DNA from: Isurus oxyrinchus
Taxonomy: Eukaryota
Assembly (NCBI GenBank): GCA_026770705.1
Contig: JANJGN010000016.1
Location: 86,118,001-86,182,000, forward strand
DNA length: 64,000 nucleotides
Direction of reading: 5' to 3'
Shown here: positions 3,901-38,470 of the stretch, piece after piece
Numbering within the stretch: position 1 is the stretch's first letter
How the letters are laid out: every line of letters starts with the position of its first letter
Program-made: the position numbers and the translations under genes
Notes under the pieces: generated by a model
Databases searched by the model: none
Told to the model about the DNA's origin: nothing
What the model saw: the letters and a program-made list of their open reading frames with translations, nothing else

Positions 3901-6900
3901 ACACACCCCACCACCCCCATCAGCACCCAACCCCACACCCCTGACGTTACCCATACCCGGCATCACACACGTCCTCACCCCAAGCATCACCTCCCCCCCC
4001 TCACCCCCGGCATCATACATCCCCTCAACCCCGGCATCACACATCATGTCACCCCCGGCACCACGCACCCCCCCCACCCCTGGCCTCACTTACCACCCCA
4101 ACCTCAGCCTCACCCACCGCCTTACCTCCGGCATCACACCACCCTCACCTCTGGCATCACCCAACCGCCACCCCCCGTCCTCGACATCAACCACCCATCC
4201 AACCCCAGCACCACACACTTGCCCACCCCCGGCATCACCCACCCCCCGAACCACCAACATCAGCCACACCCACACCCTCACACACGGCATCACCCACACT
4301 CCCATCCCAGGCATCAACCACTCTCCCCCCCACCCCCGGCATCACCCTACCAAACCCCTACCCACGGCATCACCCACCCCCTCACCCCCGGCATCACTCA
4401 AACCCCCACACCGGCATCACACAAACACTCACTCCCGGCATCACCCACCCACCCACCCACCCACCCACGGCATCACTCACCCCCTCAACCTCGGCATCAC
4501 ACACCCCACCAGCCCCGGCATCACCCACCGCCATAATCCCAGCATCACCCAACCCCTCACCACCGGCGTTACCCATCCCCCATATACGCCATCACCACTC
4601 CTGCCACACCCGGCATCACCCACACCCTCACCCCCGACTTCACACAACTCGTCACCACTGGCTTCACCAAACACCCCACCCCACCGGCATCACCCACTCC
4701 ACCACTCCCGGCATCACCCACCCCCAGCATCACCAACACCCCCAACACTGGCATCACCCACACACCCCACTCCCGGCATCACCAACTCCCCCACTCCCGG
4801 CAACACCCACAAACCCACCCCCAGCATCACCCAACACCCAACCGTGGCATTGCCGAACCCCGGCATCCCCCACCCCCCCACCCCAGGCATCACCTATCAC
4901 CCCCACCCCCGGCCTCAGTCCCAGCAACAACTACACCCCCATCCCAACAACAATATTGGCATCAACCACCCCCCCAATCCCGGTATCACCCACCCCACCA
5001 CCCCCGGCATCACCCACCAGCCCCACCCCCACCCCCAACATCACACACCTCCTCACTCCTGGCTTCACCAAACATCGGACCCCACCGGTATCACCAACTA
5101 CCCCACTCCTGGCATCACCCACTCTCTCACCCTCAGCATCACCCACCCTCTCACCCCCAGCATCACCCAACCCTCAACTGTGGTATCGCCAACTCCCGGC
5201 ATCACCCAACCACCCGAACTCCGGCATCACCTATCACCCCCACCCCCGGTATCACCCACCCTCGCACCCCCGACACCATCCACATCCTCACCCCCGGCAT
5301 CACCCACACCCTCACCACCGGCATCACTCAAACCCCCAGCCCGGCCATCACCCAGCCCCTCACTCCCGGAATCACACACCCCACCAACCCATGCATCACC
5401 CAATACTTCACTGCTGGCAGCACCCAACCCCGCACCACCGACAATACCCACGCCTCCATACCCTGCAACACACACCCCCTCACCGCTGGCATCACCCTCC
5501 CACTCCAAAACCCGGCATCACCCACACCCTCATCCACGACATAACACACCCACACCACCGGCATCACCCACCCTCTCACCTCCGACACCACCACACCCCC
5601 CAACCCCGTCAACACCCACACCCACACCCCCAGCATCACCCACACCCTCACCAGCAGCATCACTCAAACCCCCAGCCTGGCATCACCCACCCCTTCACAC
5701 CCAGAATCACACACCCTACCAGCCATGGTATCAATCACCCCCTCACCCCTGGCATCACACACCCCACCACCACTGGCATCACCCACCTCTTCAACCCCGG
5801 CAGCACCCAACCCCTCATCCCCGGCATCACCCACCACCCCCGGCCCCAGCATCACCCCCCCTTCACTGCCAGCAACACCCTCACCCCCAACCCTGCCTTC
5901 ACCCACCACCGACATTACTTACTACCCCCATACTTGGTATCACCCACCCCATCAACCCCGGTATCATACACCCCACCACCCCTGGCATCACCCACCCCTA
6001 CACCCCCAGTATCAGCCAACCACACACCACTGGCATTACCCACATCCCCCATACCCGCCATCACCAATACCCCCAAACCCGGCATCGCCCACCGCCCCAC
6101 CTCTGGCATCACAAACCCCCCCTAACAATGGCATCACCCACACCCAGCATCACCCAACCCCAACCCCAGGCGACACCCACCACCCCCACCCACAACATCA
6201 CACACCTCACCACTGGCTACACCAAACACCCCACCACACCGGCATCACCCAGTCCCCCACTCCCGGCATCGCCCACCAGCCCACACCCCCAGCATCACCC
6301 ACACCCCCAACACTGGCATCACACACACACACCCCACTCCCGGCATCACCCACCCCCCCCAACCCCGGCATCAACAAGCCCCCACACCCGGCATCATCTA
6401 GCCCCCCATCCATGGCATTATCCAGGCCCCCTCCCCCGGCATCACTCAACCCCAACCAATGGCATCACCCATACCTCCACCTCTGGCATTACCCGCTCCC
6501 CCAACCCCGGCATCACCCAGCCCCCAATCCCCGGCATCAAAAACCCCCCAACACCCGGCTTCAACCACCCCCTACCCCTGGCATCACTCACCCCCTCACC
6601 CCCGCCATCACCCACCCCCCCACCCACAGCATCACCTATTCCCCCACCCTCGTCATCACCCACCATCCCATCCCCGGCATCACCCACCACCCTAACACAG
6701 GCATCACCCATGCCCACAACACCAGCATCACTCACCCCTTCACCTCTGGCATCACCTACACCCCCCCCACCCCCGGCATCACCTATTCCCCCAGCCCCGG
6801 CATCACCCACCATCACACCCCTGGCATTACCCAACCCCTTACCCCAGGCATCATCCAACCCCTCCACCCCCGGCATCACCCACCCCCTCAACCCCGGCAT

Positions 6901-33512: not shown

Positions 33513-33841
33513 CTACGCACATTCTGATCTCCTGATGCTCTTGCTGAGGGGAGAGGAAAGACTCTCGTGGGTGACGACACAGGAGAAGCTGGCGTTGGAC
33601 TCCCAGCCGGAGCCAGAGAGGGTCAGCAGGCTGCTGATGCTGTAGGTGCTGTCCGAAGCTCGCAGGTAGTTGCTGGTCTGAACCCCGTCCGAAATGGCTG
33701 CACCGTCCTTCTTCCACTCCACCTTCACCTCATCGGGATAGAAGTGATTGGCAAGGCACACCAGGGTGGCAGTGCCCTTGGTCTTGACCTCCTCTGGGGA
33801 GGGGGGCAGCAGGGTCACTGTGGGTGGTGACTTCTCTCTGC
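33513..33841 (-). CDS. IGKC: Immunoglobulin light-chain constant exon, kappa/type III (NS4-like)
   Basis: Acceptor TCCTTCTCTTCCATTTCAG| at 33842 (phase 1). Translation (S)REKSPPTVTLLPPSPEEVKTKGTATLVCLANHFYPDEVKVEWKKDG...STYSISSLLTL....WESNASFSCVVTHESLSSPLSKSIRRSECA*. It has the C1-set Cys/Trp/Cys and the terminal inter-chain Cys. Confidence 0.97.
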
Positions 33842-36857: not shown

Positions 36858-36892
36858 TCAGTCTGAGTTTGGTTCCTTTACCGAACGTAACC
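36858..36892 (-). CDS. IGKJ: Ig light-chain J segment (VTFGKGTKLRL)
   Basis: G GTT ACG TTC GGT AAA GGA ACC AAA CTC AGA CTG A|GTAAGT: FGxG motif, consensus donor, and a phase matching the C acceptor (A+GC=Ser). Confidence 0.97.
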
Positions 36893-36931
36893 CACACTGA
36901 GAGCTTCCAGTGCAGGGGCTGTACAAAAACC
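36893..36931 (+). promoter_or_regulatory. J recombination signal sequence, 23-bp spacer
   Basis: Heptamer CACACTG (36893-36899), 23 bp spacer, nonamer ACAAAAACC (36923-36931). Confidence 0.95.
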
Positions 36932-36952: not shown

Positions 36953-37132
36953 TCACTCTCACCCTCTCTCTGTCCCTCACTCACACTCACCTTTAACTCA
37001 CTCTCACCCTCTCTCTGTCTCTCACTCACACTCACCTTTAACTCACTCTCACCCTCTCTCTGTCTCTCACTCACACTCACCTTTAACTCACTCTCACCCT
37101 CTCTCTGTCTCTCACTCACACTCACCTTTAAC
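36953..37132. repeat. 4 x 45-bp tandem repeat adjacent to the J-RSS nonamer
   Basis: Unit TCACTCTCACCCTCTCTCTGTCTCTCACTCACACTCACCTTTAAC. Confidence 0.9.
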
Positions 37133-37257
37133 ACTCTCTCTTTCCCTCTCTCTTCCTCTCAATGCCTTTTTTTTGTTGGGAGAATTGAGAATCCCAATTT
37201 TATGTGATAAATCTTTCAGCTGCTCTTCATATGTGGACATGTAAGGTAAGAGGTAAA

Positions 37258-37748
37258 GTGACCATTATTATAAATTCTATATAACTGTGGGATGTGTCAG
37301 TACAGGAGGTGGGACAGTATGTCCATTATTATATATTCTATGTAACTATGGGATGTGTCAGTACAGGAGGTGGTGGTGTGTGTCCATTATTATATATTCT
37401 ATATAACTGTGGGATGTGTCAGTACAGGAGGTGGGACTGTGTGTCCATGATTATATATTCTATATAACTGTGGGATGTATCAGTACAGGAGGTGGGACGG
37501 TGTGTCCGTTATTATATATTCTATATAACTGTGGGATGTGTCAGTTAGGAGGTGGGACTGTGTGTCCATTATTATATATTCTATATAACTGTGGGATGTA
37601 TCAGTACAGGAGGTGGGACAGTGTGTCCATTATTATTTATTCTATATAACTGTGGGATGTGTCAGTACAGGAGGTGGGACAGTGTGTCCATTATTATTTA
37701 TTCTATATAACTGTGGGATGTGTCAGTACAGGAGGTGGGACTGTGTGT
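37258..37748. repeat. 8 x 61-bp tandem repeat abutting the V-RSS nonamer
   Basis: Unit (+) TATTCTATATAACTGTGGGATGTGTCAGTACAGGAGGTGGGACTGTGTGTCCATTATTATA. Confidence 0.95.
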
Positions 37749-37753
37749 ATTGA

Positions 37754-37781
37754 GGTTTTTGTCATGCTCTGTATCACTGTG
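37754..37781 (-). promoter_or_regulatory. V recombination signal sequence, 12-bp spacer (perfect consensus)
   Basis: Minus strand CACAGTG-ATACAGAGCATG-ACAAAAACC. Confidence 0.97.
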
Positions 37782-38076
37782 TTGGGGTTGCTGTTGTATT
37801 GCTGACAGGAATAATCAGCGACATCCTCATTCTGTACATTGCTGATTGTCAGGGTGAATTGAGTGCCAGATCCACTGCCGGTGAATCGCTCGGATGTTCC
37901 TGTGAATCGAGTTGTTGCCCCATAGATCAGGAGAGTCGGTTTCTGTCCTTCTCGCTGCTGGTACCAATTCACATAGCTGCTAACAGACTGACTGGCCGTA
38001 CAGGTGATGGTGGCGGTCTGGCCCAGACTCACTGACACCAGGGGAGGCTGTTTCATGGTGATGTCCCCACTGATAC
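37782..38076 (-). CDS. IGKV: Ig light-chain V exon (end of leader plus V), kappa/type III-like, open frame
   Basis: Acceptor CTCTATTACCCCTCAG| at 38077. Translation (G)[97 protein letters not shown], followed by the 12-RSS. The 12(V)/23(J) configuration is kappa-type. Confidence 0.97.
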
Positions 38077-38262: not shown

Positions 38263-38311
38263 CTGCGATGCAGAATGCCAGAGGCCAGATCAGCTGGATG
38301 GCTGAAATCAT
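38263..38311 (-). CDS. IGKV: Ig V leader exon (MISAIQLIWPLAFCIA/G)
   Basis: ACC ATG start context, 49 nt hydrophobic signal peptide, CAG|GTACAA donor, and a 186-bp phase-1 intron in frame with the V exon. Confidence 0.93.
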
Positions 38312-38371: not shown

Positions 38372-38470
38372 TTTATACAGCTGCAGCCTGTCAGAGTCTC
38401 ACTGGCTGTTCCTCAGTATGTAAATGGTATCACCCAGAGAGAACCACGTCAGCACCTTTCACTTCCTCTT
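38372..38470 (-). promoter_or_regulatory. V promoter: TATA box, variant octamer, CRE-like site and Ets-IRF composite element
   Basis: Minus strand TATAAA 38372-38377, ATTTACAT 38418-38425, TGACGTGG ~38444-38451 and AAGAGGAAGTGAAA 38457-38470. Confidence 0.75.

Follow-up and report, generated by a model that had tools for sequence, protein, structure and literature searches.

Kappa light-chain clusters of a shark carry a 61-bp minisatellite of variable copy number between V and J, probably descended from a degenerate V recombination signal

A light-chain minilocus and its spacer arrays

The window, i.e. the whole stretch of 64,000 nucleotides of Isurus oxyrinchus that was analysed (C16:86118001-86182000), holds a complete light-chain V-J-C minilocus on the minus strand, with a V 12-RSS and a J 23-RSS. 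In window coordinates, its features are:

38263 to 38311, minus strand: leader exon of the kappa gene, with an octamer-like site at 38425 and a TATA-like site at 38377
37782 to 38076, minus strand: V kappa exon, open frame
37754 to 37781, minus strand: functional V 12-RSS, 13/13 consensus matches
37716 to 37748, minus strand: first "B" half (33 nt), native RSS flank and at once the opening half of unit 1; the horn-shark gene model has it too
37258 to 37748, minus strand: 61-bp minisatellite of 8 units, each a B half plus an A half
36953 to 37161, strand not assigned: second, unrelated 45-bp CT-rich tandem array, adjoining the J RSS
36893 to 36931, plus strand: J 23-RSS (CACACTG, 23 nt, ACAAAAACC)
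36858 to 36892, minus strand: J segment VTFGKGTKLRL with splice donor
33513 to 33841, minus strand: C kappa exon, open frame, 86% identity to the Heterodontus model

The V exon has 74% identity to a Heterodontus francisci model named "kappa light chain-like" by NCBI. The leader intron is 186 nt long, and GT..AG splicing was seen in run X5 on a paralogue (L035). From its closest V and C identities and the length of the leader intron, the minilocus is probably a shark kappa gene (NS4/type III) and is filed here as such. The V RSS at 37781 on the minus strand is perfect, with CACAGTG, 12 nt and ACAAAAACC.

Both the V of the window and the V of its twin cluster (L014, see below) have YSC in place of YYC. 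Further along, 1.7 kb beyond the C exon, lies a 31 kb C-rich satellite (977 to 31777), with a period of about 24 bp, 1285 copies and 62% matches.

The original prediction placed in the V-J spacer a tandem array of eight copies, seven of them with CACAGT, with the functional RSS in register as the terminal unit (66 bp versus 61 bp). The array and its spacing were recovered. TRF reports period 61, 8.1 copies and 92% matches at 37258-37748. On the minus strand CACAGTT is found at 37715, 37654, 37593, 37533, 37472, 37411 and 37289, with CATAGTT at 37350. The distance from the RSS to the first unit is 66, and the later units are spaced by 60-61. The array starts past the nonamer and the following TCAAT, and stops at TAATAATGG.

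Each unit is composed of a B half of 33 nt and an A half of 28 nt, the first bases of which are CACAGTT. Units border the previous unit and no V, D or J coding segment, and only unit 1 is in an open frame with the V, via the real RSS. Some of the internal unit junctions read GGTCACACAG, which would fit an origin by slippage at CAC microhomology.

The array in other kappa clusters

DNA and protein searches of the genome found 25 V and 25 J segments, all located at C16 85.79-88.47 Mb, in both orientations and a median of 95 kb apart. Their V-J spacers measure between 553 and 6070 bp (median 1325). Comparison of these paralogous spacers, a check proposed with the original prediction, found the 61-bp unit in 25/25, so it is not particular to the window cluster. 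Copy number goes from 1 to 70 (median 13), for a total of 419 units, counted as sites with at least 9/14 matches. The array is therefore a variable-number minisatellite within the spacers of one multigene family, present in every kappa cluster found; its copy-number variation is known among loci of one assembly, and the contigs of other runs do not span arrays.

All 25 V frames are open and the clusters are unrearranged: in none of those found is the kappa gene deleted, inverted or joined in the germline. One cluster (L012) has a damaged J, without FG, and a damaged J heptamer, and another (L022) has the V heptamer CACTGTG. The twin of the window cluster, L014 (C16:85909000-85918999), lies 242 kb away and is near-identical, with 100% identity in the V, an 8-unit array and 96-99% identity over 10 kb. 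It is either a recent duplication or an assembly duplicate.

With the whole array as query, 83 matches fall in 27 places, namely the 25 kappa spacers and two orphan sites; these counts are lower bounds, as the search skips very common words. Within these bounds, the expected confinement to immunoglobulin loci holds for 25 of 27 places, and we rejected the possibility of a dispersed repeat. Seven further V-like loci, each of 10 kb, gave no match to the unit.

The first orphan array (L011, C16:85714614-85716669) sits at the edge of the locus. A 1.1-kb insertion interrupts its units, which number about 16, and 70 kb of sequence around it gave no match to V, J or C. The second (L043:5100-5199, C16:52630599-52630698) is a 100-bp piece of array, 33 Mb away, that begins with CACAGTT inside a high-copy repeat, which we take to be Harbinger-like. 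RAG transposition was considered for this piece and rejected: empty host copies share at most 5 bases with the unit at the CACAGTT end, and the other end shows A/T slippage (9 of 40 scored host copies aligned). Given this end microhomology and slippage, a microhomology-templated insertion suffices as explanation.

The 61-bp tandem joint is also present in a second organism, in runs X6, X9 and X17. In that organism the summed depth on the unit is 7,705 and 60,586, compared to 25 and 36 on the V, figures that are not a copy number.

Minisatellites and VNTRs are known for head-to-tail units, interspersion of variant repeats, higher-order duplication and occasional orphan insertions. In terms of unit variation, the 389 full-length units used for the conservation profile comprise 192 distinct sequences, with a mismatch of 3.9% for the whole unit, 3.3% for CAC and 2.9% for the heptamer. 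CAC ranks mid-way in conservation among 59 triplets, and nothing here hints at selection in favour of the RAG target or against it, in units that are not independent of each other. The array of L033, with 70 units, contains an internal repeat of a 1,887-bp block.

The 45-bp CT-rich VNTR is found on the J side of all 25 spacers, with 2-29 copies, and its copy number is independent of that of the 61-bp array (rho 0.13, p 0.53). Each of its units agrees with the J heptamer in 6/7 positions and lacks a nonamer, and 0 of its sites pass the 9-of-13 filter described below.

The literature search found no description of the array; its reach stopped short of older subscription papers and of the deposited GenBank NS4 genomic clones, which may show it.

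The A half and the V signal

What relates the array to the RSS is the A half itself. Its heptamer matches that of the RSS in 6/7 positions (CACAGTT vs CACAGTG), as had been proposed. A spacer match of 8/12 with only transitions, also proposed, is correct for the window variant, found in 2 of 25 clusters, but the spacer type of the other 23 has 7/12 matches with one transversion, together with the same 6/7 heptamer and a 3/9 nonamer. The view that the nonamer alone was lost did not hold either. With one gap, the A nonamer reaches 5/9, and an older terminal variant of the unit reaches 6/9 and goes on with TCAA or ACAA. This older variant ends the array in 3 clusters (L012, L021 and L033), followed by about 80 bp absent from the other clusters. 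Once a 1-nt spacer deletion is allowed, its alignment to the RSS extends across the nonamer and into the bases beyond.

The original prediction also counted about 33 nt of downstream identity as homology to the RSS. As proof of an RSS duplication this is circular: the 33 nt shared after the RSS and after each A are B, with which unit 1 begins, so that they belong to the definition of the array and are not evidence on the RSS. The sequence past the last unit holds no significant copy of the RSS flank (p 0.91 and 0.68), and neither do the older tails (p 0.15-0.61). The comparison of A with the RSS is therefore the only real evidence.

Against chance, this likeness is above expectation but modest, with p 0.018 for the best ungapped match at any offset. 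In register, A and the RSS match in 20/33 positions, a value reached by 0 of 30,800 background positions, although the last 5 of the 33 possibly come from across a deletion. Gapped alignment gives p 0.007-0.011 for the unit; for the older variants it gives 0.0015-0.002 in L012 and 0.04-0.13 in L021 and L033. These three variants share ancestry and count as one line, and the p-values for homology remain modest. Background windows scoring as high numbered 2, 98 and 35 of 7,994, the 98 being those for the main unit. The alignment past the heptamer alone gives p 0.001-0.014.

An alternative is that an AC/AT-rich stretch beside the RSS was amplified and happens to start with CACAGT. The any-offset value, the weak values of two of the three older variants and the 98 background windows that equal the main unit all speak for it, as does the presence of 6/7 heptamers in the B half and in the J-side repeat. 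It is countered by the in-register match, by the post-heptamer alignment and by the better fit of the older variant exactly at the point where the main unit is cut off, and we regard it as unlikely. Judged on these alignments, the A half probably descends from a copy of the RSS.

Amplification of the RSS with its flank, as originally proposed, is thus retained for the RSS-copy origin and modified for the process, which would have had two steps, with a 61-bp amplified piece that excludes the real RSS. In the first step, which we hold to be likely, the RSS and its next few bases would have been copied once, 66 bp downstream. The copy would then have decayed, through a G-to-T change at heptamer position 7, the loss of one spacer base and partial erosion of the nonamer. 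In the second step, a 61-bp piece bounded by CAC microhomology (flank B plus the decayed copy A) would have been duplicated by slippage. From then on, unequal exchange would expand and contract the array independently in each cluster, with homogenisation of the paralogues.

The first copy is probably old and single, and the amplification recent. In the horn-shark gene model the frame continues across the RSS and B as far as the same HPT, so both B and the CCCACA at +66 must be old; as a protein, this model is silent on an array in that species.

Recombination at the array and comparison with known systems

Seven V-to-J junction contigs from 5 runs were placed on the single-unit paralogue L035, where the real RSS border is at 4552 and the cryptic heptamer at 4618. 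In all of them the V was left at 4529-4551, i.e. 7/7 at the real RSS border. One contig matches L033, the cluster with 70 units, in its CDR3, unique among the 25, and in 119/119 V bases; it comes from an animal whose array may be of another length. Another matches L035 (1 unit) or L022. Runs X5 and X16-X19 are guessed to be RNA, with X19 flagged as probably DNA. These contigs demonstrate normal V-J joining and are silent on rare cryptic joints, as they come from dominant, probably selected clones of other individuals and contigs drop rare joints. With the same restriction, the matches listed for contigs of 8 of the 24 listed runs include neither a loose end nor a strand-change joint at the cryptic heptamer. 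Run X16 has one fold-back contig, which was discarded, as it joins away from the predicted places.

From the V exon the reading frame runs on without a stop for 22 codons, across the RSS and the B half and up to the first cryptic heptamer (window 37782-37706, minus strand); this holds for 25/25 clusters and for the horn-shark model. If J joined at the first unit, the light chain could thus have a CDR3 22 residues longer. Among proteins of 66-210 aa, no such light chain was found. The single longer match is the gene model of an unrearranged gene, and of the 65 matches from a search of representative proteins, the 7 inspected are all generic V read-throughs or other antibodies.

In terms of signal strength, the strong filter for cryptic RSS demands CAC and 9/13 matches, i.e. 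4 mismatches (PMC11153149). In SARP-seq with a consensus nonamer, the heptamer CACAGTTAT, which is the natural heptamer of mouse Traj38, gives 0.067% compared to 1.14% for CACAGTGAT, hence 17-fold weaker (PMC9723617); the RAG assays behind these heptamer figures, and those behind the nonamer figures below, all used mouse RAG.

One functional view would be that a decayed RSS copy has been amplified into a tunable decoy field, with each unit made by the tandem junction into a cryptic 23-RSS oriented like the V signal. Array length (1-70 copies here) would then determine the frequency at which a kappa cluster is lost or held back and not joined. If true, sharks would have an inherited and rapidly mutating control of V usage and of light-chain exclusion that works without long-range control of the locus, and real use of decoys would be an undescribed way of setting gene-segment usage. 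We consider it quite unlikely.

The better cryptic reading of the unit is a 23-RSS, which is absent from the original prediction. The tandem junction sets ACACAGTCC (6/9) 23 nt behind CACAGTT, with the orientation of the V 12-RSS. By the 12/23 rule a 23-RSS partners a 12-RSS, and two signals in the same direction lead to inversion or hybrid joints. At the kappa locus, units of this type would thus partner the V RSS, giving V inversion or hybrid joints and not J joints. Now and then RAG would choose a unit of the array, and not J, as partner for the V RSS; the intervening piece would be inverted or a hybrid joint formed, and the cluster would be killed, with lower usage at higher copy number.

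At 23 spacing, 229 of 419 units pass the 9/13 filter, in 23 of 25 clusters, over a background of 0.03 sites per kb per strand. Shuffled units pass in 0.8-1.5% of trials (3.4% given the heptamer), figures that stand before allowing for the number of spacings tried, since this spacing was picked after looking at the data. Furthermore, 24 units in 8 clusters hold nonamers in the top 1000 of the 262,144 predicted for a 23-RSS (PMC12711392). The common nonamer ACACAGTCC, however, is outside this top 1000 and lacks A6-A7, and the A6-A7 positions are the most variable of the unit (11-22%). The weak heptamer also argues against this use of the array, as do the window itself, where only 2 of 8 units qualify (9/13 at 37593 and 37472), and the normal joint of the V from the 70-unit cluster. 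A role of the units as 23-type decoys is therefore very unlikely.

The function first proposed took the units as cryptic 12-RSS, convergent with the J 23-RSS, so that J would be joined to the array before V, with the cluster inactivated and usage or exclusion tuned. In agreement with this, 384 of 419 units keep CAC and are convergent with J, and work on mouse Igk counts as RAG off-targets the cryptic CAC sites that lie between J and V in convergent orientation (PMC11153149). As a 12-RSS, the unit has a heptamer near CACAGTG (6/7) and a nonamer far from ACAAAAACC (3/9 at 12 nt; 5/9 at 11). No unit reaches 9/13 at 12 spacing (0/419, mode 6/13), while a spacer of 11 nt gives 8/13 in 308 units and 9/13 in 17. 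TAATAATGG is not among the top-1000 predicted nonamers in Table S2 of PMC12711392. Non-consensus A/T-rich nonamers one base off the 11-spacer reading are predicted to be functional there, several of them in the top 1000, and 13 units carry one. With the 17-fold weaker heptamer, CAC not selectively kept, V frames intact at 1-70 copies and the real RSS used in 7/7 junction contigs, joining of J to cryptic 12-RSS as a means to tune or inactivate the cluster is highly improbable.

The explanation we favour, at a probability of roughly two in three, is that the array is a neutral VNTR passenger, with a two-step origin from a decayed duplicate of the V RSS and weak off-target potential. RAG would favour the perfect V 12-RSS, and a unit would at best be a weak off-target. 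The array would cost a small share of rearrangements, would lengthen the spacer without blocking it and would be removed by normal V-J joining. The persistence of the array in 25/25 clusters and in a second organism speaks against neutrality; descent with homogenisation would account for this retention, and selection could explain it too.

Even a neutral array provides a natural series, with 25 near-identical clusters that share identical promoters and signals, spacers of 0.55-6 kb and 1-70 weak RAG sites. Such a series could address whether shark miniloci need a short V-J distance, and how far a strong RSS beats a field of cryptic ones in a native setting.

Among known systems, nurse-shark NS4 and horn-shark kappa-type miniloci have one V, one J and one C per cluster (PMC2193156), and the clusters described here share this organization and the 186-bp leader intron. 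NS4 V-J spacers are about 500 bp long (502-524), and the word "repeat" is absent from the text of that paper, in contrast with the 553-6070 bp (median 1325) found here, with two VNTRs filling the spacer. Nurse-shark NS4 also has germline-joined genes, according to the same source, unlike the 25 kappa clusters found here.

The units resemble cryptic RSS and RAG off-target CAC sites (PMC9723617, PMC12711392 and PMC11153149) in having a CAC heptamer, a poor nonamer and a location near the recombination centre, and some of them pass the filter. They differ in being hundreds of near-identical tandem copies, known here from their sequence, that lie between both real signals and are probably derived from an RSS.

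Finally, the array is like minisatellites and VNTRs in its 61-bp head-to-tail unit, interspersed variants, higher-order duplication, 1-70 copies across 25 paralogues and orphans. What sets it apart from VNTRs in general is its restriction to the spacer of a single multigene family, together with its apparent seeding by a regulatory signal.
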